This document shows, piece after piece, positions 13,498 to 53,000 of a stretch of 64,000 nt of DNA. Source of the DNA: an uncultured Candidatus Saccharibacteria bacterium. GTDB lineage: Bacteria; Patescibacteriota; Minisyncoccia; Phycocordibacterales; GWA1-40-21. Within the stretch, counting starts at the first letter, position 1; each line of letters opens with the position of its first letter. The stretch is from the NCBI GenBank assembly GCA_964562105.1, contig CAZLRP010000002.1, positions 19,222-83,221 of the forward strand, in the 5' to 3' direction. Both the position numbers and the translations under genes were made by a program. The notes beneath the pieces were generated by a model, which saw nothing but the letters and a program-made list of their open reading frames with translations, had not been told where the DNA came from and did no database searches.

Positions 13498-13518
13498 AAA
13501 TTATGATTTATTATTTTT

Positions 13519-13655
13519 ATCCGCACACTAATTCTATCATCGTTGCATCGTGTTCTTAATATCAGTAAATATTATGTTGTTTATTAAGTAAGTTTAATTT
13601 TATATAACTAATCTCTCTGCGCAACAAAAACACAATGATAGAGTTAGTGTGCGGA
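13519..13655. repeat. Family-A palindromic element copy 1 (about 137 bp; termini CCGCACAC...GTGTGCGG with 35-nt arm complementarity)
   Basis: Left arm tccgcacactaattctatcatcgttgcatcgtgtt and right arm gcaacaaaaacacaatgatagagttagtgtgcgga. The right 35 nt are identical to the copy at 52862-53000. The element overlaps the last 4 codons and stop of the nusB-Nudix gene and ends 22 nt before the rnc start codon. Confidence 0.7.
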
Positions 13656-14543
13656 CTTGCTACTTATTATTGTTATAGCTTTTGTGATGATCGGCAATAT
13701 ATCATTATAAAAATTAAGGTTTTGAATTTCTTGAAGCTTGAACCATTTGGCATCATCAAGGCCTCCGCTGTCTCCGCGTTTTAATTCTGTTCTCTCGGCT
13801 TTTGCAAGAAAATATATCACCTGTTTTCTTATTTTTCCTTCTTCGGGATGATTTGCCACATATTCATTTTTTAAAAGTTCATCTTCAATCGTGATATCAA
13901 TACCCATTTCTTCTTTTATTTCCCTCACCGCTCCTATTTTTGGATCTTCGCCTGCATCTATCTTTCCTTTTGAAAGAGTCCACTTCCCAAAAACATCGTG
14001 AACGAGAGCAAAATAAATATTTCCGTCTTCAACACTATAGACCACAGCTCCCGCGAGTTGTTTTATCGGCATTTGCTCAAACGGAACATCTTTATGTTTT
14101 TTAGAAACTTCGTCTTTGCCTGGCTCTCCAAGCTCTTTGTATATAGTGCCCAAAACTCCATTTATAAAGCCTCCGCTCTTTTCTCCGCTGTAAGTTTTTG
14201 CAAGCTCAATAGCTTCGTTAATTGCAACTTTTGCCGGAACTTCTTTTCTATCAGAGAACAACAGCTCATAAAGCCCCAGACGCAAAATATTTCTGTCGGC
14301 GATAGAAATTTTTTCTATCGGCCAGTCAGGCGCAGCTTTTACAATAATACTGTCCAAATCCGTTTTTTTATCAATTATTCCTTTCAAAAGATTTTCGGAA
14401 AAATTTTTTTCTGCATTTCCCTCTCCAAATTCTTTATTATTTCTTTCTAGAGATAATAAAGCTTCTTCTCTTGAAGAATTTCTAAAATCCCACTCAAAAG
14501 CGGATTGAAATACTATTGATCTTGCAAGGTGCCTGCTAAACAT
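13644..14543 (-). CDS. nusB: NusB (antitermination factor)-Nudix hydrolase fusion protein
   Basis: N-terminal half is NusB-like (ARSIVFQSAFEWDF...VAINEAIELAKTYSGEKSGGFINGVLG). C-terminal half has a Nudix box (GKWTLSKGKIDAGEDPKIGAVREIKEEMG). Confidence 0.75.
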   Translation of the reverse strand: MFSRHLARSIVFQSAFEWDFRNSSREEALLSLERNNKEFGEGNAEKNFSENLLKGIIDKKTDLDSIIVKAAPDWPIEKISIADRNILRLGLYELLFSDRKEVPAKVAINEAIELAKTYSGEKSGGFINGVLGTIYKELGEPGKDEVSKKHKDVPFEQMPIKQLAGAVVYSVEDGNIYFALVHDVFGKWTLSKGKIDAGEDPKIGAVREIKEEMGIDITIEDELLKNEYVANHPEEGKIRKQVIYFLAKAERTELKRGDSGGLDDAKWFKLQEIQNLNFYNDILPIITKAITIISSKSAH

Positions 14544-21042: not shown

Positions 21043-21079
21043 AAACATACGAATATACAAATATTACTAATGGTACAAA

Positions 21080-21158
21080 TGGCTACAAATAATTAATTCG
21101 TTTCGAATTTATTCGTAGCCATTCGTATCATTCGCATAATTCGTTAATTCGTAATAAC
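21080..21158 (+). promoter_or_regulatory. ATTCGTA heptamer direct-repeat array (motif copy A) in the thrS 5' region
   Basis: attcgtt..attcgtagcc attcgtatc attcgcata attcgtta attcgtaa with about 9-10 bp spacing, plus a flanking near-IR ATGGCTACAAATAA / TTATTCGTAGCCAT. Homologous to 29404-29449 and 36193-36250. Confidence 0.55.
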
Positions 21159-21169
21159 ATCATAAAAAT

Positions 21170-22960
21170 ATGGAAAACGAAAAATTACACAGAATGAGAC
21201 ACTCGCTCGCCCACATACTTGGCGCAGCTGTTATCGAATTGTATCCTGATGTAAAAATAGCAACAGGTCCAGCAATTGAAAACGGTTTTTATTATGATTT
21301 TGATTTTTCCGCACCGATTACAGACAAAGACCTTGGAAAAATTGAGCAAAAAATACGTGAACTTTCAAAAAAAATAAAATCTTTTGATAAAGCAGAAATT
21401 TCGGAGAATGATGCAAAGAAACTTTTCGCAGACAATCCATATAAACTTGAGCTTATAGATGAATATGCAAAAGACGGAAAAACTCTTACTGCTTATACTT
21501 CGGGAGATTTTACAGACCTTTGCGCAGGCCCTCACGTAGAAAGTATGGATGAAATTAAAAATAGCGCTTGGAAACTTGAAAGGCTTGCCGGAGCATATTG
21601 GAAAGGAGATGAAAACAATAAAATGCTTACAAGAATTTACGGCTTAGCATTTCCAACAAAAGAAGAACTTGATGCATACGAAAAACAACAAGAAGAAGCT
21701 AAGAAAAGAGATCATAGAAAGCTTGGAAAAGATTTAGATCTTTTTCACATGGATGAAAAAGTTGGGCTCGGTCTCCCTTTATGGCATCCAAAAGGAGCTA
21801 TGCTATGGAGAATCATTGAAGATTTTTGGTATCAGGAGCATCTCAAAAATGACTACGATTTAGTAAGAAGCCCGCATATAGGTAAAAAAGAATTATGGGA
21901 AACATCAGGTCATTGGGGTTTTTATAATTCAAGCATGTATCCTCCGCTTGAAGCAGGACAAACATTGAAAGAAAAACAGGAAGGTAAAAAAATTGAACAT
22001 TCTGAGGAATACTTACTTAAACCAATGAATTGTCCTTTTCATGTTCAGATATATAAAAACAGTCCAAAATCCTACAGAGAATTCCCTTTCAGATGGGCAG
22101 AATGTGGAACGGTTTACAGATTTGAGAAAAAAGGTGAACTTTCCGGACTAACTAGAGTAAGAGGATTCACACAAGACGACGCACACATACTTTGTAGAAA
22201 AGATCAGGTTGAAGATGAATTAAAAAGAGTCATTGATTTTATTTTATTTATTTATAAATCTTTTGGTTTTGATATTAGTTCAGTAAAGGTATTTCTTTCT
22301 TTGAGAGATCCAAATAATAAAGAAAAATATGCCGGTAATGATGAAGGTTGGGATTTTACTGAAGAAGTTTTAAGAAAAGTTGCCATAGAGAAAAAACTTG
22401 ATTTTGCAGAAGAAAAAGGAGAAGCGGCATTTTATGGACCAAAACTTGATTTTAAAGTCAAAGATGCTCTAGGAAGATTGTGGCAATGTTCCACACTACA
22501 ATTTGATTTTAATTTGCCTGAAAGATTTGATCTAACATTCATGAATTCAAAAAGCGAACAAGAAAGACCATACATGCTTCATAGAGCTCTCTTTGGAAGC
22601 TTTGAAAGATTTATAGGACTACTCATTGAACATTATTCTGGTGCATTCCCTCTCTGGCTCGCACCCGTGCAAATAAAAATAGTTCCGATAAGAGAAAATC
22701 ATAACGAGCATGCAGAAAAAATTTCTAAGGAACTAAAAGATGCTGGGTTCAGAGTAGATTGCGATACAAAAGAAGGAAATATGGGAGGAAAAGTTCGCGA
22801 TGCAAAAAATAATAAAATTCCTTATACGATAATCATCGGAGACAAAGATATTGAAGCTAAAAAAATATCAGTGGAATCAAGAGATAAAGGACAGCTCGGT
22901 CAGATGGATTTGAAAGATTTTATTGAAAAGATTGAAAAAGAAAAGGAAAACAGAGAGTAA
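21170..22960 (+). CDS. thrS: Threonyl-tRNA synthetase (lacks N-terminal TGS domain)
   Basis: HSLAHILGAAV editing-domain start, class-II core (FRWAECGTVYRFE, GFTQDDAHI), C-terminal anticodon-binding domain. Confidence 0.9.
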   Translation: MENEKLHRMRHSLAHILGAAVIELYPDVKIATGPAIENGFYYDFDFSAPITDKDLGKIEQKIRELSKKIKSFDKAEISENDAKKLFADNPYKLELIDEYAKDGKTLTAYTSGDFTDLCAGPHVESMDEIKNSAWKLERLAGAYWKGDENNKMLTRIYGLAFPTKEELDAYEKQQEEAKKRDHRKLGKDLDLFHMDEKVGLGLPLWHPKGAMLWRIIEDFWYQEHLKNDYDLVRSPHIGKKELWETSGHWGFYNSSMYPPLEAGQTLKEKQEGKKIEHSEEYLLKPMNCPFHVQIYKNSPKSYREFPFRWAECGTVYRFEKKGELSGLTRVRGFTQDDAHILCRKDQVEDELKRVIDFILFIYKSFGFDISSVKVFLSLRDPNNKEKYAGNDEGWDFTEEVLRKVAIEKKLDFAEEKGEAAFYGPKLDFKVKDALGRLWQCSTLQFDFNLPERFDLTFMNSKSEQERPYMLHRALFGSFERFIGLLIEHYSGAFPLWLAPVQIKIVPIRENHNEHAEKISKELKDAGFRVDCDTKEGNMGGKVRDAKNNKIPYTIIIGDKDIEAKKISVESRDKGQLGQMDLKDFIEKIEKEKENRE

Positions 22961-23008
22961 AAAAGGCGGTTCTGCGCAGCTTTATGCGAAGCAGAACCGC
23001 CTTTTTTA
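22961..23008. terminator. Intrinsic terminator ggcggttctgcgcagctttatgcgaagcagaaccgcc (near-identical copy at 24858-24894)
   Basis: 11-bp GC-rich stem flanked by A-run and T-run, after the thrS stop. Confidence 0.7.
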
Positions 23009-23016
23009 TTACTTTT

Positions 23017-24813: not shown

Positions 24814-24852
24814 AAATAGAAGGTAGAATATAGGATATAGAAAATATAAATA

Positions 24853-24900
24853 CAAAAGGCGGTTCTGCGTAGCTTTATGCGAAGCAGAACCGCCTTTTGT
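24853..24900. terminator. Intrinsic terminator ggcggttctgcgtagctttatgcgaagcagaaccgcc (1-nt variant of the 22965-23001 hairpin)
   Basis: Between convergent genes 23773..24813(+) and gyrB(-). Confidence 0.7.
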
Positions 24901-24942
24901 ATTTTGCATTGAATTTCCTATCTTCTACCTTTTACATTCTGT

Positions 24943-29378: not shown

Positions 29379-29403
29379 GATTGATCTGGTATTTAAATTT
29401 AAT

Positions 29404-29449
29404 TATTTGTAGCCATTTGTATCATTCGAATAATTTGTATATTCGTATG
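29404..29449 (+). promoter_or_regulatory. ATTCGTA/ATTTGTA heptamer array (motif copy B) between pheS and pheT
   Basis: ttatttgtagccatttgtatcattcgaataatttgtatattcgtatg. Same order and orientation on the + strand as copy A. Confidence 0.5.
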
Positions 29450-29456
29450 TTCATCT

Positions 29457-30221
29457 TCAAAATTGATTTACCAACCTCAAATCCCCTGAGTAAAACAGTC
29501 TGATATCATCTATCCCGTATTTCATCATTGCCAATCGTTCCACAGAACCACCGAAGGCAAAACCTGTCCATTCATCCGGATTTATTCCAACATTTTTCAA
29601 AACTTTCGGATGCACAATTCCCGCTCCCATTACTTCCACCCAGCCGGTTCCTTTGCATACTGGGCAACCAGCCTCTCCCCCGTTGCATTTAAAACAAGAA
29701 ATATCTATTTCCGCCCCAGGCTCAACAAACGGAAAATAACTTGGCCTGAATCTGACATTAATATCTTTTTCAAAAAATTTATCAAAAAAAACGTTTACGA
29801 CAGACTTAAGGTTTGCCAAAGAAACATTTTTATCTACATACAAACCTTCAAATTGTTGGAACTGCATTTCATGCGTAGCATCAGTCGCTTCTTTTCTATA
29901 AACTTTACCTGGACAAATTATTCTAAAAGGAAGTTTTTTATTTTCTTCCATAAAATGAACTTGCATCGGGCTTGTGTGCGTTCGCAATAATTTATTTTCC
30001 ACACCAGGCGAATTTTTATTCGGTTTGACCCAAAAAGTATCCTGCATATCTCTTGCTGGGTGATCCTTAGGAACATTTAGAGCATCGAAGTTGTAATATT
30101 CCGTTTCCAATTCTGGTCCATCAGTAAGAGTGAATCCCATTTCAAAAAAAATCTTATTGATGTCGTTTATCACTCGGGTAATCGGATGAACATGTACGGT
30201 TTTTTTGTCCAAATTTTGCAT
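29457..30221 (-). CDS. pheS: Phenylalanyl-tRNA synthetase alpha subunit
   Basis: Class-II motifs ...FRPSYFPFVEPGAE...GFAFGGSVERLAMMKYGIDDIRLF. Confidence 0.9.
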   Translation of the reverse strand: MQNLDKKTVHVHPITRVINDINKIFFEMGFTLTDGPELETEYYNFDALNVPKDHPARDMQDTFWVKPNKNSPGVENKLLRTHTSPMQVHFMEENKKLPFRIICPGKVYRKEATDATHEMQFQQFEGLYVDKNVSLANLKSVVNVFFDKFFEKDINVRFRPSYFPFVEPGAEIDISCFKCNGGEAGCPVCKGTGWVEVMGAGIVHPKVLKNVGINPDEWTGFAFGGSVERLAMMKYGIDDIRLFYSGDLRLVNQF

Positions 30222-30268
30222 AACCCCAATTATACAGAATTTTTACCTTTTTGCATCATATATGTTGT

Positions 30269-30339
30269 GCCATTCCCGTGAAAACGGAAATCTAGATTGA
30301 ATTAAATTAATTTTGGATTCCCGTTTTCACGGGAATGGC
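30269..30339. repeat. Family-B REP-like palindromic element copy 1 (GCCATTCCCG...CGGGAATGGC)
   Basis: Outer IR plus two internal ATTCCCG-loop-CGGGAAT hairpins and the shared core AATCTAGATTGAATTAAATTAATTTTGGATTCCC. Confidence 0.7.
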
Positions 30340-30345
30340 AGATGT

Positions 30346-30375
30346 GAAGAGCGGCGCCGAAGGCGCCGCTCTTTT
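30346..30375. terminator. GC-rich hairpin agagcggcgcc-gaa-ggcgccgctct + T-run
   Basis: 11-bp stem. Intergenic between pheS and the GT2 gene. Confidence 0.5.
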
Positions 30376-30472
30376 AAATTCTTAAATTAACTATTTTTAT
30401 ACCACATTTTCACTTTTTTCTTCGTACAAAATCCATATTTAAAGCTTTTTTTATATAATAAAAAGTGCTATA

Positions 30473-36192: not shown

Positions 36193-36250
36193 TTACGAAT
36201 TATTATACTAATATACGAATTTATGCGAATGATACGAATGGCTACAAATA
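36193..36250 (-). promoter_or_regulatory. ATTCGTA heptamer array (motif copy C) abutting the rpmE start codon
   Basis: Reverse complement reads tttgtagccattcgtatcattcgcataaattcgtatattagtataataattcgtaac-ATG, nearly identical to copy A upstream of thrS. Confidence 0.55.
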
Positions 36251-36371
36251 TACACCATACGAACTATTCAGATGCAAGAATAGTACATTATTTTATAAAA
36301 AATACAAGAGCGGTTTTGGCTTCGCCAAAACCGCTCTTGTATTTTTTATTTTTCCTAAAAACTAGGACCTA

Positions 36372-40445: not shown

Positions 40446-40591
40446 TATTTACCCGAGAAAATTTTTGCCAATAAAAATTGTTTGTTTGACTTAATAACTT
40501 ACATCTATTATATCACATGACATAACAAAATTTGTACGTAGTAGAAACAACTAATTTTTAACAAACATTGGCAAAAACTTTAACGGGTGAA
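40446..40591 (-). repeat. Family-C TIR cassette copy (reverse orientation) abutting the fba start codon
   Basis: Ends atttacccgagaaaatttttgccaa (40446-) and ttggcaaaaactttaacgggtgaac (-40591). In gene sense the proximal end reads ...gcaaaaattttctcgggtaaataat-ATG. Confidence 0.65.
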
Positions 40592-41293: not shown

Positions 41294-41305
41294 AATTTTT
41301 TAATT

Positions 41306-41376
41306 GTCATTCCCGTGCAGACGGGAATCCAGAATTAGTTTAATACAACCTAGATTCCCGCATCCGCGGGAATGAC
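41306..41376. repeat. Family-B REP-like element copy 2 (inverted core orientation), 12 bp upstream of the SET-gene start
   Basis: gtcattcccgtgcagacgggaatccagaattagtttaatacaacctagattcccgcatccgcgggaatgac. Confidence 0.7.
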
Positions 41377-41381
41377 ACACA

Positions 41382-42854: not shown

Positions 42855-42967
42855 AATTAAAATAAAATTATTAATTTATACAGTTAATTATATCTTTTCT
42901 ATTTATGTATGGCAATGTTTTACAAGACAGAGTAAAAATTCACACGGAACAGGTATTCTGCTATACT

Positions 42968-43107
42968 TGACCCGTTAAAGTTTTTGCTGATGTGTTGAAA
43001 ATGAGAAGAAAAATAATTATCTTTTTTAAAGATAGTTTCTAGTAAAAATTTTATTTAATCGTTTAACATCAACACATTTTTGTCAGCAAAAATTTTCTCG
43101 GGTAAAT
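42968..43107 (+). repeat. Family-C TIR cassette copy abutting the asnB start codon
   Basis: Left end tgacccgttaaagtttttgctga and right end tcagcaaaaattttctcgggtaaat are mutual inverted repeats. Contains an internal palindrome atcttttttaaagat and a TTGTCA-17-TAAATT promoter-like pair at the proximal end. Confidence 0.65.
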
Positions 43108-43110
43108 TTT

Positions 43111-44970
43111 ATGTGTGGAATTGCCGGGACTGTGAGTCCCGAAATAAAAGAAAAAGATAGTGTTATACGAGAAATGATTTCTCGCATTTTTCATCGTGGA
43201 CCAGATGATGACGGTTTTTTTGTGGACGAGAATATTGCTTTGGGTATGCGCAGATTGTCTATAATAGATATTTCTACCGGTAAACAACCTATATGGTCGC
43301 AAGATAAAAAGAAAGTTATATTTTTTAATGGTGAAATTTATAATTATCTCGAACTCCGTAAAGAATTGATTTCAAAAGGCCATATTTTTGATACACATGG
43401 CGACACAGAAGTTATCTTGCACATGTATGAAGAATATGGAGAAAAAATGCTTACCCAGCTACGAGGTATGTTTGCATTTTGCATATATGACAAAGAAAGC
43501 AAAGCTGTTTTTCTGGCACGAGATTTTTTCGGAATAAAACCGCTTTATTATCTTAAAGATGCCGAAAAAATAGTTGCGTTCTCGTCTGAAATAAAAAGTT
43601 TTTTGTCTTACCCAGGATTCAAAACCGTGGTCAATGATTCAGCTGTCTACAATTATTTATCATTCCAATACAATCCACTTCCCGAAACTTTTTTCAAATC
43701 CGTTTATAAGCTTCCTCCTGCCCACTGCATGAAAATTGACTTAAAAAATGGAAGCGTGGAAATTAAAAAATATTGGTCATACGAAATTAAGCCAGATGAA
43801 AATTTGGAAGAGATTGAGACCACAAAAAAAATCCACGAAACTATACGAGATTCAGTAGAACATCACATGATTGCAGATGTTCCCGTCGGCTCTTTTCTTT
43901 CTGGCGGAATTGACAGTAGTATTATTGCCACGATGATGCAGGAAATCCGTGGAGGCAACCCCAGTCAAATAAAAAGCCAATTTGACGGGGCAAGAAAAAT
44001 TAAAACTTTTACAGTTGGTTTTGATACACTAACAGAAGGCGTAGAATCAAAAGAAACATCAGATTTTCTTGGCACAGATCATACAGAAATAAAAATCGGG
44101 CCTGAAGAATATTTTAATATTCTTCCAAAAGCCGTATATCACTTTGATGAGCCCGTCGCCGATCCTTCCGCTATTGGGCTTTATTTTGTAGCCCGTGAAG
44201 CAAAAAAACATGTCAAAGTTGTACTTTCTGGTGAGGGGGCTGATGAACTTTTCGGCGGATATAATATATATCTTGCACCTTTTGCTTACAAAAAAATATC
44301 TTGGATTCCTAAAAGCTTTTTGAAAATAATTTTAAAAATACCATTTGAATTTTTTGGAAAAAACTATATTCGCCGCGCGAGCGACTTGCTTTCAAACTGG
44401 TATGTAGGCAACGCTTCAATATTTAAAGATTTTGAGCGAGATTTGTTGTGGAAAAAACAAGTTGAACAAAAATATTCCCTTTCGCCATTTTATGAACATG
44501 TAAAAAATTTGAGTGATTCTACGCAAATGCAATATATTGATGTTTCTACTTGGCTCATTGGAGACATCCTGGCAAAAGCTGATAAAATGACAATGGCAAA
44601 TTCATTGGAGCTTCGCGTGCCTTTTTTGGATAAGAAAGTTTCAGATTTGGCCTCCACTTTGCCAGATAAATTTAAATGGCGTAAAGGCGTGACTAAATAC
44701 CTTTTGCGAGAGGCATTTAAGAATGTAATCCCCGAGAGCACCCGCAATAGAAAAAAGCTTGGTTTTCCAACACCAATTCGCGATTGGTTCACCGAAGACA
44801 GACAAGATTTATACCAGAAAATATACGACTGTAAATACATAAGAGAGCATATGAATGTTGAATATATTAAAAAAATTGTGGAAGATCATATAAATAAAAA
44901 AATCGATAACTCCAGAAAAATATATTTACTTTTAATGCTCGCTTTGTGGTTTGAGGTATTTGTTAAATAA
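43111..44970 (+). CDS. asnB: Asparagine synthase (glutamine-hydrolysing)
   Basis: MCGIAG N-terminal nucleophile, SGGIDSS PP-loop. Confidence 0.9.
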   Translation: MCGIAGTVSPEIKEKDSVIREMISRIFHRGPDDDGFFVDENIALGMRRLSIIDISTGKQPIWSQDKKKVIFFNGEIYNYLELRKELISKGHIFDTHGDTEVILHMYEEYGEKMLTQLRGMFAFCIYDKESKAVFLARDFFGIKPLYYLKDAEKIVAFSSEIKSFLSYPGFKTVVNDSAVYNYLSFQYNPLPETFFKSVYKLPPAHCMKIDLKNGSVEIKKYWSYEIKPDENLEEIETTKKIHETIRDSVEHHMIADVPVGSFLSGGIDSSIIATMMQEIRGGNPSQIKSQFDGARKIKTFTVGFDTLTEGVESKETSDFLGTDHTEIKIGPEEYFNILPKAVYHFDEPVADPSAIGLYFVAREAKKHVKVVLSGEGADELFGGYNIYLAPFAYKKISWIPKSFLKIILKIPFEFFGKNYIRRASDLLSNWYVGNASIFKDFERDLLWKKQVEQKYSLSPFYEHVKNLSDSTQMQYIDVSTWLIGDILAKADKMTMANSLELRVPFLDKKVSDLASTLPDKFKWRKGVTKYLLREAFKNVIPESTRNRKKLGFPTPIRDWFTEDRQDLYQKIYDCKYIREHMNVEYIKKIVEDHINKKIDNSRKIYLLLMLALWFEVFVK

Positions 44971-45617: not shown

Positions 45618-45849
45618 TTTACCCGTTAAAGTTTTTACTAACGCATTTTTGTCTTTACAAATAAAGTTAAGTAGACTAGATTAAATAAAACATAATTATC
45701 TGAATAGTCTTGCTGTGTTTAAAATGACAAAAATGCAAAAAAGTTAGTTTTGAGTTAAGATATTACTTGTAATATAAATGTTTGATAAATTAAGTAAGTT
45801 AGATATAGTCACTACTAACTTTTTTATTAGTAAAAATTTTTTCGGGTAA
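45618..45849 (+). repeat. Family-C TIR cassette copy (about 232 bp) abutting and overlapping the mraY start codon
   Basis: Left end tttacccgttaaagtttttactaa and right end ttagtaaaaattttttcgggtaaat(g)ATG. Confidence 0.65.
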
Positions 45850-46899
45850 ATGATGATCAACGCTTTAAAAGTCGTAATTCCCTCTGTTTTAACATTCTTT
45901 TTGGGTATTTTAATAACGCCTTTTTTCACCAATTTTTTCTACAAATACAAAATGTGGAAGAAATCTTCACGAACAGAAGCCGGCACTACGGAAGAATTTG
46001 CAAAAGTACATAACACAAAAGGTGAGCTTTCCACTCCCCGAGTCGGTGGAGTAATTATATGGGTATCGGTATTGCTTACAATCGGCATAATATATCTGCT
46101 TTCAATTCTTTTTCCGACAGATCTGACTGAAAAATTAAATTTCCTCAGTCGCAACCAAACACTTGTGCCTCTTGTCGCATTTATATTTGCATCTTTAATT
46201 GGACTCGCAGATGACATGTTGCAAATAATGGGAAAAGGCAGTTATGCAAAAGACAGTTTAATCTACAGAAAAATAAAAATAATCGTTGTAACGCTTATCG
46301 GCTTGATTATCGGTTTTTGGTTTTATAATAAACTTGAAGTAAGTTCTATTTATATGCCTTTTCTTGGAGATATAAATCTTGGCTTGTGGTTTATTCCATT
46401 TTTCATTACAGTTATGTTAGCCACATTTTCAACTAGCGTTATTGATGGAATTGACGGACTTTCAGGAGGGGTGCTAACAAGCGCTTTTACCGCATATGCA
46501 ATTATAGCTTTTGCAAACAATCAGATAGATATAGCTGCTTTTTGTGCCGTCATTGCAGGTGGAACATTAGCCTTCCTTTGGTTTAATATTCCTCCGGCTA
46601 GATTTTATATGGGAGAAACGGGAATACTTGGTCTTACCATTGTACTTTCTGTAATTGCTTTTATGACTGATGCAGTCGTAGTTCTTCCTATCATCGCTTT
46701 ACCTTTGGTTTTGACATCCGCTTCGGTCATTATACAAATGATTTCTTATAAATATTATAAGCGCAGAGTTTTTCGCGTAGCTCCACTGCATCATCACCTT
46801 GAAGCAATCGGCTGGTCAAAAGAAAAAGTTGTGATGCGTTATTGGATAGTCAGTGCTGTTTTTGCAATAATCGGAGTGATTGTAGCTCTCGTAAGCTAA
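45850..46899 (+). CDS. mraY: Phospho-N-acetylmuramoyl-pentapeptide transferase
   Basis: 10-TM protein with LADDMLQ and VAPLHHHLE motifs. Confidence 0.85.
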   Translation: MMINALKVVIPSVLTFFLGILITPFFTNFFYKYKMWKKSSRTEAGTTEEFAKVHNTKGELSTPRVGGVIIWVSVLLTIGIIYLLSILFPTDLTEKLNFLSRNQTLVPLVAFIFASLIGLADDMLQIMGKGSYAKDSLIYRKIKIIVVTLIGLIIGFWFYNKLEVSSIYMPFLGDINLGLWFIPFFITVMLATFSTSVIDGIDGLSGGVLTSAFTAYAIIAFANNQIDIAAFCAVIAGGTLAFLWFNIPPARFYMGETGILGLTIVLSVIAFMTDAVVVLPIIALPLVLTSASVIIQMISYKYYKRRVFRVAPLHHHLEAIGWSKEKVVMRYWIVSAVFAIIGVIVALVS

Positions 46900-47546: not shown

Positions 47547-47570
47547 AGAAACATTATAACATTATATTAC

Positions 47571-47652
47571 GTCATTGCGAGTGTAACGAAGCAATCCAGG
47601 TTTAATTTAAATTAATTCTGGATTGCCACGTCGCTTCGCTCCTCACAAAGAC
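47571..47652. repeat. Family-B REP-like element copy 3 (divergent ends, conserved core AATCCAGGTTTAATTTAAATTAATTCTGGATTGCC)
   Basis: 25 bp upstream of the rpiB start. Confidence 0.55.
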
Positions 47653-47664
47653 ATACGTATTGAT

Positions 47665-49083: not shown

Positions 49084-49094
49084 ATTTGTTTTGT

Positions 49095-49162
49095 GTCATT
49101 CCCGTGTAAACGGGAATCTAGGTTGAATTTTAATAATGGATTCCCGCATTCGCGGGAATGAC
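49095..49162. repeat. Family-B REP-like element copy 4, 11 bp upstream of the gatB start codon
   Basis: gtcattcccgtgtaaacgggaatctaggttgaattttaataatggattcccgcattcgcgggaatgac. Confidence 0.7.
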
Positions 49163-49290
49163 AATACAAAAATACAAATAAATAATAGCATAAAAATTAT
49201 AAAATGAGCTTCATTTTTATCCTTGACAAAAGATTTATAATGAGGTACAATTCACAAGTAGCTAAATTTGTTCTTCAAAAGGAGAAAAAC

Positions 49291-49470
49291 ATGACAGATC
49301 AAATTTTTATAGCAATTTTTGTTCTTGTGAGTGCTTTTTCAGCTGGCAAATTTGTAGAAACACATTCGTCCTTTTGGCTTAGTGTATCAGTGGCTTGGGG
49401 ACTTTGGGTAATTTGTAACAGTATTTTAATAACAGGAAAAAACATTATCAAAGAAATTAAAGAAAAATAA
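49291..49470 (+). CDS. Small two-TM membrane peptide (59 aa)
   Basis: SD AAGGAG 8 nt upstream. Sequence MTDQIFIAIFVLVSAFSAGKF...WLSVSVAWGLWVICNSILITG. Followed by a terminator identical to the one after the next ORF. The ORF track gives a longer 88-aa form. Confidence 0.5.
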   Translation: MTDQIFIAIFVLVSAFSAGKFVETHSSFWLSVSVAWGLWVICNSILITGKNIIKEIKEK

Positions 49471-49488
49471 GTGAAAGAGGATGTAACG

Positions 49489-49522
49489 AGCGGTATCTTT
49501 TATGAGGAGATGCCGCTTTTTT
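49489..49522 (+). terminator. Intrinsic terminator agcggtatc-ttttatgaggag-atgccgct + T6 (identical copy at 50011-50046)
   Basis: 9-bp stem including one G-T pair, followed by a T-run. Confidence 0.65.
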
Positions 49523-49616
49523 AATTACATTTTTATCCATTTTTACAACTTGATAATACAATTATAATAATGTAGAGTTTTGCTAGATAGTTATATTTTA
49601 ACAAAGGAGGTATTTT

Positions 49617-49994
49617 ATGCCTATGATGTATTGTCCAATTTGTGGATATTTTTCATTTAATCCCAAGAAACAGAATCATCCCTTGCTAGGTGAACAACCT
49701 AACGACTGTCATGATCCTTGGAACCATTACACAGAAGAGCAAAGAAAAGAAATTAAAATGTTACCCGTAACTACAGAAAATTTATTTTGTGGTAAGTGCG
49801 ACAAGATATTTTCTGTCGGTTATGTGGAAAAGGTATTTTGTTCATCCGTCGCAGGAATTAAAGAGATAACTTGTCCACATTGTTTCGGGTATCCGCTTGC
49901 GCCAATAACAGAGTCTCATCTAAAAGCTGGTGAAAATGGTGGAGTAGTATTTCTTTCCGGCCTCGCACAAGAAACATTTGGAATTTCTCATTAA
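49617..49994 (+). CDS. Cys-rich zinc-ribbon protein (125 aa)
   Basis: SD AAGGAGG 6 nt upstream. CPICG...CGKCD...CPHC. Confidence 0.5.
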   Translation: MPMMYCPICGYFSFNPKKQNHPLLGEQPNDCHDPWNHYTEEQRKEIKMLPVTTENLFCGKCDKIFSVGYVEKVFCSSVAGIKEITCPHCFGYPLAPITESHLKAGENGGVVFLSGLAQETFGISH

Positions 49995-50010
49995 AAAGCA
50001 CGGGGAGATA

Positions 50011-50046
50011 AGCGGTATCTTTTATGAGGAGATGCCGCTTTTTTTA
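50011..50046 (+). terminator. Intrinsic terminator, exact duplicate of 49489-49522
   Basis: aagcggtatcttttatgaggagatgccgctttttttatt. Confidence 0.65.
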
Positions 50047-50055
50047 TTGTACACT

Positions 50056-50126
50056 GTCATTCCCGCGGAGGCGGGAATCTAGGTTGAATTAAATTAATTC
50101 TGGATTCCCGCCTGCACGGGAATGAC
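50056..50126. repeat. Family-B REP-like element copy 5 (most complete)
   Basis: gtcattcccgcggaggcgggaatctaggttgaattaaattaattctggattcccgcctgcacgggaatgac. Just 3' of the obg stop. Confidence 0.7.
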
Positions 50127-50133
50127 ACACGAT

Positions 50134-51176: not shown

Positions 51177-51521
51177 TTATAAAGTTTTAATAAAACCAGA
51201 TAATAATCTTGAGATATCCAAGGATAGATCGTTCAATCCTGTATATTCTTTATTATCTATATATTTCAAATCTTTAGCTAATGAAAGCATGGATCTTACT
51301 TCCGCACAAGAACCTTTCGCTATATAAAAAAACTGAATAATTTCTTTATTACTTTTTCTCTCAAATCCTTCGGCGATATTATTCATAATTGAAACCCCAG
51401 CTCTTTGTATTTGATCTTTAAATGAGTAATCTTTAGAAAACTTAAAAATACAATGGACTTGCAAAGTCAAAACTTTCGCTTTTTGCCAAGCTATAATATC
51501 TTCAAATTTCTCTATCTTCAT
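51177..51521 (-). CDS. Four-helix-bundle protein (23S rRNA IVS-protein family)
   Basis: FEDIIAWQKA...QIQRAGVSIMNNIAEGFERKSNKE...IAKGSCAEV. Confidence 0.65.
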   Translation of the reverse strand: MKIEKFEDIIAWQKAKVLTLQVHCIFKFSKDYSFKDQIQRAGVSIMNNIAEGFERKSNKEIIQFFYIAKGSCAEVRSMLSLAKDLKYIDNKEYTGLNDLSLDISRLLSGFIKTL

Positions 51522-52455: not shown

Positions 52456-52852
52456 CTCTGATTTCTTCTATATCCTTTGAAATATGATCTATCTTAACCC
52501 TGACATTTGTGATTTCTTCTTCCTCTTTAGCTACCTCGGCTTCAGTTTTATCTGTTACTTTTTTTTCTTTTTTAATTCCAGAAATAATAACTCTTTCTCC
52601 AATAAGGTTTGATACAAAAAGACCTGTCATAAGTAAGATGAGCGAAGACCAAATTACTGTAACCGGTTCATAAAAAAACCAACCCAAAAAACCACCCCTT
52701 GCCATTAAAATATCGGCTGTATGCCATATTCCTCTCCATAAAAGAATAGTCCCCATCCCACCGACAAATGCGTATATTATTGATCTGTGGCTCAACCTTA
52801 TTCTTACTCTATCTTCAAGCTTGTCAAAATAACTTACTATCGATTTAAACAT
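52436..52852 (-). CDS. Small membrane protein with C-terminal coiled coil
   Basis: Two TM helices followed by a KE-rich helix. Confidence 0.4.
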   Translation of the reverse strand: MFKSIVSYFDKLEDRVRIRLSHRSIIYAFVGGMGTILLWRGIWHTADILMARGGFLGWFFYEPVTVIWSSLILLMTGLFVSNLIGERVIISGIKKEKKVTDKTEAEVAKEEEEITNVRVKIDHISKDIEEIRDDITKK

Positions 52853-52861
52853 ATGAATCTT

Positions 52862-53000
52862 GTCCGCACACCAACTCTATCATCGTTACATTGTGTTTAC
52901 AGTATCATTAAACGTCAACTTTTATTTACTAAGAAAATTTGCTTTTATTTTACAAATCTCCTTTAGCAACAAAAACACAATGATAGAGTTAGTGTGCGGA
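52862..53000. repeat. Family-A palindromic element copy 2 (about 139 bp)
   Basis: Left arm tccgcacaccaactctatcatcgttacattgtgtt; right 35 nt identical to copy 1. Ends about 10 nt before the start codon of gene 52436..52852. Confidence 0.7.

Follow-up and report, generated by a model that had tools for sequence, protein, structure and literature searches.

Inverted pairs of NTS-like hairpins in intergenic spacers of a low-GC Paceibacterota/CPR genome

The Neisseria Transformation Sequence (NTS) is an oriented 28-nt motif, CGTCATTCCCGCGMAVGCGGGAATCYRG, which extends the classical dRS3 repeat ATTCCC-N8-GGGAAT and for which a degenerate form, the 'Ssn-related motif' (SRM), has also been defined (Chenal et al., Nat Commun 2025, PMC11893778). 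Its enzyme partner, SsnA, is a 94-aa single-domain GIY-YIG nuclease (cd10448) that binds the NTS hairpin solely as single-stranded DNA, shows no RNA binding, and cuts a few nucleotides upstream. The C located right after the palindrome is the most important base for SsnA binding, while the three bases before the palindrome (GTC) are critical for cutting (PMC11893778). The ssn genes themselves frequently have NTS on both sides, an arrangement that resembles an IS, and the authors left open whether Ssn-type nucleases mobilise their own repeats. Their survey covered RefSeq reference and representative genomes and located Ssn mainly in Pseudomonadati; SRM-rich genomes were enriched in symbionts, with Wolbachia as one SRM-rich genus. 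In addition, dRS3 is the target of a Neisseria filamentous-phage recombinase and is enriched near variable genes (PMC11893778).

A similar type of repeat was identified in a 34% GC Paceibacterota/CPR genome. The window, which is the whole stretch of 64,000 nt analysed here, contains four tight copies (1, 2, 4, and 5) and one variant (copy 3):

Copy 1, 30268..30340, no strand assigned: composite element with sense arms at 30269-30292 (+) and 30316-30339 (-)
Copy 2, 41305..41377, no strand assigned: composite with arms at 41306-41329 (+) and 41353-41376 (-)
Copy 3, 47570..47653, no strand assigned: variant located between the gatB stop and the rpiB start
Copy 4, 49094..49163, no strand assigned: composite with arms at 49095-49118 (+) and 49139-49162 (-)
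Copy 5, 50055..50127, no strand assigned: composite with arms at 50056-50079 (+) and 50103-50126 (-)

An earlier note on this DNA had described these five copies as a REP-like palindromic family, and all of them were found in place. The half-site GTCATTCCCG-N6-CGGGAATC, searched with up to 3 mismatches, gave 8 matches, corresponding to the two arms of each of the four tight elements, compared with 0.02 expected from shuffles. All copies in the window are intergenic, as had been observed, and are flanked by pheS, a GT2 glycosyltransferase gene, rpe, a SET-domain gene, gatB, rpiB, and obg. Furthermore, four copies do lie upstream of minus-strand start codons, at distances of 47 nt (copy 1, pheS), 12 nt (copy 2, SET-domain gene), 24 nt (copy 3, rpiB), and 11 nt (copy 4, gatB). 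Copy 2 lies within an operon spacer, with the rpe stop located 5 nt before it, and copy 5 is found 7 nt past the obg stop, between this stop and the terminator of a small plus-strand ORF.

The arms follow the layout TGTCATTCCCG-N6-CGGGAATCYAG. Each composite can be read as two inverted 28-nt NTS joined by an AT-rich linker of approximately 17 nt (GTTGAATTAAATTAATT), because the arms match the NTS and exhibit the GTC head, the trailing C, and GNAN loops. The conserved AT-rich core proposed earlier is therefore present, with a size of only about 17 nt once the full 28-nt arms are counted; copy 4 has a linker shorter by 3 nt. Each element is a long imperfect palindrome, with an arm-to-arm complementarity of 83-86%. 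As single-stranded DNA, entire elements are predicted to fold at -19 to -29 kcal/mol (z -6 to -10), while single arms are predicted to form an 8-bp stem with a 4-nt loop at -6.9 to -8.9 kcal/mol (z -3.5 to -5.4). The stem reads ATTCCCGY/RCGGGAAT and the loop GNAN, which replaces the 7-bp stem and 6-nt loop of the earlier description. The eighth stem pair covaries between C-G and T-A: among 63 readings, in which each arm was read on both strands, we counted 37 C-G, 18 T-A, 4 T.G, 3 C.A, and 1 G.G. The strand asymmetry of G.T versus A.C mismatches, used as a test of single-strand selection, showed no clear bias, the mismatches being too few. In the isolated whole element, one long hairpin is predicted to be favoured over the two arm hairpins, and this form would hide the NTS fold.

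Based on these sequences, the arms almost certainly belong to the NTS/SRM hairpin class. The dRS3 palindrome is exact in 7 of the 8 arms of copies 1, 2, 4, and 5, and the remaining one (the left arm of copy 1) has a single mismatch, located in the stem; copy 3 is devoid of this palindrome. The GTC head was observed in 6 of the 8 window arms, the others being the two GCC-headed arms of copy 1, the most degenerate copy. The C after the palindrome is present in all eight, followed by TAG, CAG, CAT, or CAA. In a collection of 35 distinct sense arms, drawn from both the window and related contigs, the GTC head is present in 31 and the trailing C in every one. The published degenerate SRM pattern fits 4 of the 8 arms, compared with 0.08 expected. 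In relation to the 28-nt NTS, 2, 5, and 6 of the 8 arms are within 2, 3, and 4 mismatches, respectively, and none is within the 1 mismatch allowed by the authors.

The similarity with the NTS/SRM system thus comprises the 20-bp dRS3 palindrome, the oriented flanks (xGTC at the 5' side and C-YRG at the 3' side), the 8-bp stem with a G-N-A-N loop, and a multi-copy, intergenic distribution with bracketed genes. The differences, in turn, include the 34% GC Paceibacterota/CPR host, a T instead of a C at position -1, and an arrangement almost exclusively as tight inverted pairs joined by the same conserved linker of 17 nt. Moreover, a cd10448-type ssn gene was not found in the 64-kb window or in the related loci read.

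In the case of N. gonorrhoeae, the ssnA locus contains 16 arms (GTCATTCCCGCGCAGGCGGGAATC) within 3.2 kb, nearly identical to those of the window, and many of them are arranged as convergent +/- pairs. These pairs, directly visible in the gonococcal locus, are shared with the Neisseria intergenic mosaic elements (NIME), in which RS units are flanked by dRS3, and both NIME and the present elements have inverted dRS3-type palindromes on either side of a short unique segment. The NIME linker in Neisseria, from the work of Parkhill and colleagues in 2000, is reportedly about 50-150 nt long. The linker described here (~17 nt) is much shorter, and the elements are distributed as solitary units, in contrast to the tandem arrays of the NIME.

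Copy 3 has the AT-rich linker and the GTCATT...AATCCAG frame in common with the other copies. Its left arm reads GTCATTGCGAG...GCAATC and its right arm is a degenerate GATTGCCACGTCGCTTCGCTCCTC(G)CAA(T)GAC, neither of which is predicted to form a stable hairpin by itself. This copy is chimeric, its arms being derived from another widespread family, GATTGCCACGTCGCT..GCTCCTCGCAATGAC. The right arm (window 47626-47653) belongs to a widespread exact repeat, GATTGCCACGTCGCTNNGCTCCTCGCAATGAC, with 74 occurrences in 63 viral-collection contigs (L026-L088) of 36-67% GC. These occurrences are mostly solitary and often located beside other GTCATT...AATC-type hairpins, and no Ssn gene was identified near them in these viral-collection loci.

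A search with a core-specific pattern returned matches in only three GTDB species genomes, one of them (L008) titled Candidatus Paceibacterota, now assigned to the phylum Minisyncoccota at NCBI. This relative is syntenic with the window over 29.2-36.6 kb, at 76-80% nucleotide identity. A metagenome scan added nine contigs with the same composite (32-40% GC), and the composite is also present in relatives that carry a GIY-YIG gene. Two Logan contigs (run SRR13007705) are 100% identical to the window and contained within it. Looser double-hairpin composites with other linkers were observed in seven viral-collection contigs of 47-66% GC, which agrees with the wide spread reported previously (PMC11893778).

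All 18 copies read in the window and its relatives are intergenic. Many occupy very short spacers, with a stop codon 4-14 nt behind them and/or a start codon 10-23 nt ahead; several are placed between genes of the same direction, and both orientations are present. The bias towards start codons suggested by the earlier note is real; it is mainly a consequence of the elements having inserted into very short spacers, since operon copies lie just past stops, both orientations occur, and orthologous spacers are found without the element. For instance, upstream of the release-factor gene an element is present in L008 and the syntenic window site is empty, and upstream of nusB the site is filled in L018 and empty in the window. 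Two orthologous sites are thus filled in a relative and empty here, indicating that the element is gained and lost. These filled and empty pairs come from genomes that are only ~78-85% identical and are too diverged to define a target-site duplication or a clean junction; no duplication is visible in the 18 copies.

Copy 2 had been thought to carry an inverted core alone; instead, the entire element is inverted and is 95% complementary to copy 5, loops included. When the linker is compared with the loop variants of the arms, copy 5, copy 2, L010, and L015 display one arrangement, while L008 and L014 display the opposite one and represent true core-versus-arm flips. An exchange between the inverted arms would give either linker orientation.

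We propose that the composite joins two Ssn recognition hairpins into a NIME-like or MITE-like unit acting on single-stranded DNA, a reading to which we assign a probability of roughly 0.65. The identity between the arms and the NTS, the retention of the nucleotides critical for SsnA, the covariation in the hairpin, the copies in both orientations, and the gain and loss between relatives form its basis. In the proposed mechanism, a strand would become unpaired during replication, repair, or the uptake of outside DNA, and an arm reading GTC-ATTCCCGY-GNAN-RCGGGAAT-C on the exposed strand would fold into an 8-bp hairpin. A putative Ssn-family GIY-YIG nuclease could then bind this hairpin and nick a few nucleotides upstream, as in the organisms studied. 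Because the two arms are inverted, each strand would have a single sense site, at the element edge that is 5' on that strand, and either strand would consequently be recognisable, with predicted cuts just outside both ends. Such a geometry would fit the cutting of incoming single strands, whichever enters, and also the excision or spread of the unit itself. We infer that the organism encodes a nuclease of this kind acting on these sites, and the same applies to the mode of spread.

The search for the corresponding nuclease covered the window with motif regexes, tblastn, and Pfam scans of about 50 ORFs, which detected no Ssn, other GIY-YIG, RAYT, or transposase gene and assigned the ORFs to housekeeping families or to no family. 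Around 20 related loci were additionally screened by tblastn with GIY-YIG queries, the search for Y1 transposases being confined to the window. In several relatives (L008, L020-L023, and L092), an 89-aa single-domain GIY-YIG protein was identified (Pfam PF01541, E 2.6e-14), a member of a large Patescibacteria family. Its gene is located in a 303-bp cassette with terminal inverted repeats of ~22 bp that always adjoins the ATG of the next gene. One 733-kb contig comprises two cassette copies with 99.3% identical DNA and the same protein, along with one decayed copy. Gene-less pairs of the cassette terminal repeats were also found in the window:

L020 10001-10270: GIY-YIG cassette copy in the 733-kb CPR contig
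L020 12069-12335: GIY-YIG cassette copy in the same contig
L021 10001-10270: GIY-YIG cassette copy in the same contig
Window 42956-43107 (+): gene-less pair of terminal repeats, ACCCGTTAAAGTTTTTGCTAAC ... TTAGCAAAAATTTTCTCGGGTAAAT
Window 45618-45851 (+): gene-less pair of the same repeats
Window 40446-40591 (-): gene-less pair of the same repeats

In the 733-kb contig, the cassettes have type IV pilus / T2SS genes immediately downstream of their insertion points. The gene-less pairs end 0-4 nt before the next ATG, the genes concerned being an aldolase gene, a 619-aa ORF (43111-44970), and a GT4 glycosyltransferase gene. Their appearance is that of MITE-like remnants left by a tiny mobile GIY-YIG gene, and they may exceed the finding of the NTS pairs in novelty.

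The 89-aa protein shares 31% identity with gonococcal SsnA (38 bits) and scores 33 bits against UPF0213 proteins; being about equally far from both, it counts only as a candidate Ssn. The cassette has its own terminal repeats in place of NTS flanks. It co-occurs with composites in several genomes and, in L092, is located 375 nt from one of them. Of the features of a MITE, the NTS pairs have clear terminal inverted repeats (TGTCATTCCCG, often TGTGTCATT); no target-site duplication is visible, and no parent element with NTS-pair ends was found in the loci read. A stronger reading, which we consider unlikely, would make the NTS pairs of the CPR lineage genuine non-autonomous transposons, with a very small single-domain GIY-YIG nuclease as the enzyme that moves them. 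If it were true, small GIY-YIG genes bounded by inverted repeats would constitute a minimal class of mobile element based on single-strand DNA; the canonical NTS-ssn-NTS unit and the cassette of 303 bp would be candidate examples, and the NTS pairs and the gene-less repeat pairs would be the MITEs of small GIY-YIG elements.

A different possibility is a function at the RNA level, where a hairpin transcribed as part of an operon or 5' leader would stabilise, process, or attenuate mRNA, comparable to REP/BIME in enterobacterial operons, or yield a small RNA. The positions of several copies are suggestive in this respect: they occupy co-directional intercistronic spacers (rpe-SET, gatB-rpiB, L014, L017, and L010), with the preceding stop 4-14 nt away, the next start 10-23 nt away, and no Shine-Dalgarno sequence intervening, and the predicted fold is very stable. 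However, the elements occur in both orientations relative to transcription, and orthologous spacers in close relatives lack them, so that the element is not needed for the flanking genes. Furthermore, the conserved unpaired GTC head and C tail are those required by a DNA nuclease without RNA binding (PMC11893778). The hairpins also lack a U-tract and are not called as terminators, which speaks against the role in termination raised previously. A Rho-independent terminator was ruled out as an identity, as no T-run follows the hairpins and the terminator scan passes over the elements while calling canonical terminators nearby. Taken together, an RNA-level function appears improbable as the main explanation.

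The RNA databases offered one related candidate. At gathering score, Rfam identified only a tRNA-Thr in the window, and a permissive scan added just a sub-threshold match of copy 5 to RF02625 (WsnRNA46; 34.4 bits, E 1.8e-5), a point in favour of an RNA-level function. Membership in this family was rejected, the gathering score being 65.3. The Wolbachia RNA has the same palindrome plan and inner sequence, GUGUCAU-stem-GGAUCCAGAA-AU-rich-CUGGAUUCC-stem-AUGACAC, and differs in its stems and in a linker 40 nt longer than the one described here, and the present elements are known from sequence alone. An outward promoter from the terminal ATGACA was also set aside: copy 4 gave only consensus-level matches, and for gatB the -10 box would fall inside the gene.

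The elements could also be passive sites, serving as targets for site-specific recombinases or integrating elements or as hot spots of homologous exchange near the genes that they flank. The role of dRS3 as a phage-recombinase target enriched near variable genes (PMC11893778) points in this direction, and so does the pheS-GT2 spacer, which holds copy 1 in the window and the mobile 89-aa GIY-YIG cassette in L008. Copies 4 and 5, in addition, bracket a segment of ~0.9 kb with two small orphan ORFs and near-identical terminators. Against this, no recombinase or prophage was detected in the window by Pfam among about 50 ORFs, and in the one readable homologue context of the bracketed 125-aa ORF, NTS flanks are missing. 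We rate a purely passive role as quite unlikely. The two ORFs were likewise rejected as NTS-associated genes, as they have no Pfam/NCBIfam matches and the same homologue context is free of NTS.

The comparison with REP/BIME elements, on which the earlier note was built, holds as an analogy, given that the class has a dedicated small nuclease in other bacteria. Both types are dispersed, intergenic, hairpin-forming repeats in inverted pairs, linked to a small nuclease acting on single-stranded hairpins, and neither system exhibits target duplications. The REP head is GTAG, and RAYT belongs to the HUH/Y1 family. The present elements have a GTC head and NTS/SRM arms, with GIY-YIG as the partner family, and are therefore placed outside the REP family; the known partner of the motif is an Ssn-type GIY-YIG single-strand nuclease, not the REP-associated transposase that had been suggested. 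Strict REP/BIME repeats mobilised by a RAYT (IS200/IS605-like TnpA) encoded elsewhere would account for the short intergenic palindromes, the inverted pairs, the single-strand hairpins, and the lack of visible target-site duplications, yet this is very improbable considering the nearly base-for-base match to NTS/SRM, the missing GTAG-type head, and the absence, already pointed out in that note, of a Y1 transposase domain among about 50 window ORFs.

Both the repeat class and its enzyme partner were already published in 2025 (PMC11893778). The new aspects are the host lineage, a CPR with 34% GC, and the arrangement of the arms in fixed, tight inverted pairs that share a single conserved linker; since the elements sit in a tiny-genome candidate-phyla bacterium, they add a host to a repeat type already known. 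The NTS/Ssn repeat system, mainly studied in Pseudomonadati, is extended to an ultra-small episymbiotic CPR lineage, in which the nearly unchanged GC-rich 28-nt motif is conspicuous against the genome background. This case fits the reported enrichment of SRM-rich genomes in symbionts (PMC11893778). Considering the Ssn recognition pair as the preferred reading, the fixed inverted arrangement together with its gain and loss offers a clean substrate for the question of Ssn repeat mobilisation. CPR bacteria are thought to be dependent on DNA uptake, and a nuclease site readable on both strands could therefore bear on the handling of incoming DNA. In terms of annotation, the elements account for spurious small ORFs (encoding '...IPA.AGMT' type peptides) and contig breaks in such genomes.

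Various additional features were observed in the window and the related loci. The orphan ORFs between copies 4 and 5 are located at 49204-49470 (membrane-like) and 49617-49994 (125 aa, with four CxxC-type motifs), the product of the latter having only three database relatives. Both are followed by terminator hairpins (49488-49526 and 50010-50048) that are 97% identical to each other. Another palindromic pair of terminator-like hairpins, at 22958-23010 and 24851-24903, is 94% identical (AAAAGGCGGTTCTGCG.AGCTTTATGCGAAGCAGAACCGCCTTTT). Right after copy 1, a strong GC-rich hairpin with a T-run, AGAGCGGCGCCGAAGGCGCCGCTCTTTT, is found at 30346-30378 (+) with no plus-strand gene upstream, and this spacer corresponds to the site of the GIY-YIG cassette in L008. 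In L092, a solitary arm variant at 13976-13999, GTAATCCCCGTGAAGACGGGGATC, exhibits a compensated stem in which ATCCCCG/CGGGGAT replaces ATTCCCG/CGGGAAT, so that the hairpin is kept despite the altered sequence.

Furthermore, a repeat family of ATTCGTA/ATTTGTA-like units (TTATTCGTAGCCATTCGTATCATTCGCATAATTCG) is distributed in intergenic regions in both orientations (window 21044-21169, 29399-29463, and 36218-36266), and in L012 (380-420) such a repeat directly adjoins an NTS pair. An element of ~150 nt is present in two copies, 13509-13667 and 52851-53000, with 79-84% identity; it contains an internal inverted repeat, TCCGCACAC.A..TCTATCAT / ATGATAGAGTTAGTGTGCGGA, and has no Rfam match at gathering score. 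Finally, a gene for a 23S rRNA intervening-sequence protein (PF05635) was identified at 51177-51521, between obg and a MYG1-family gene.
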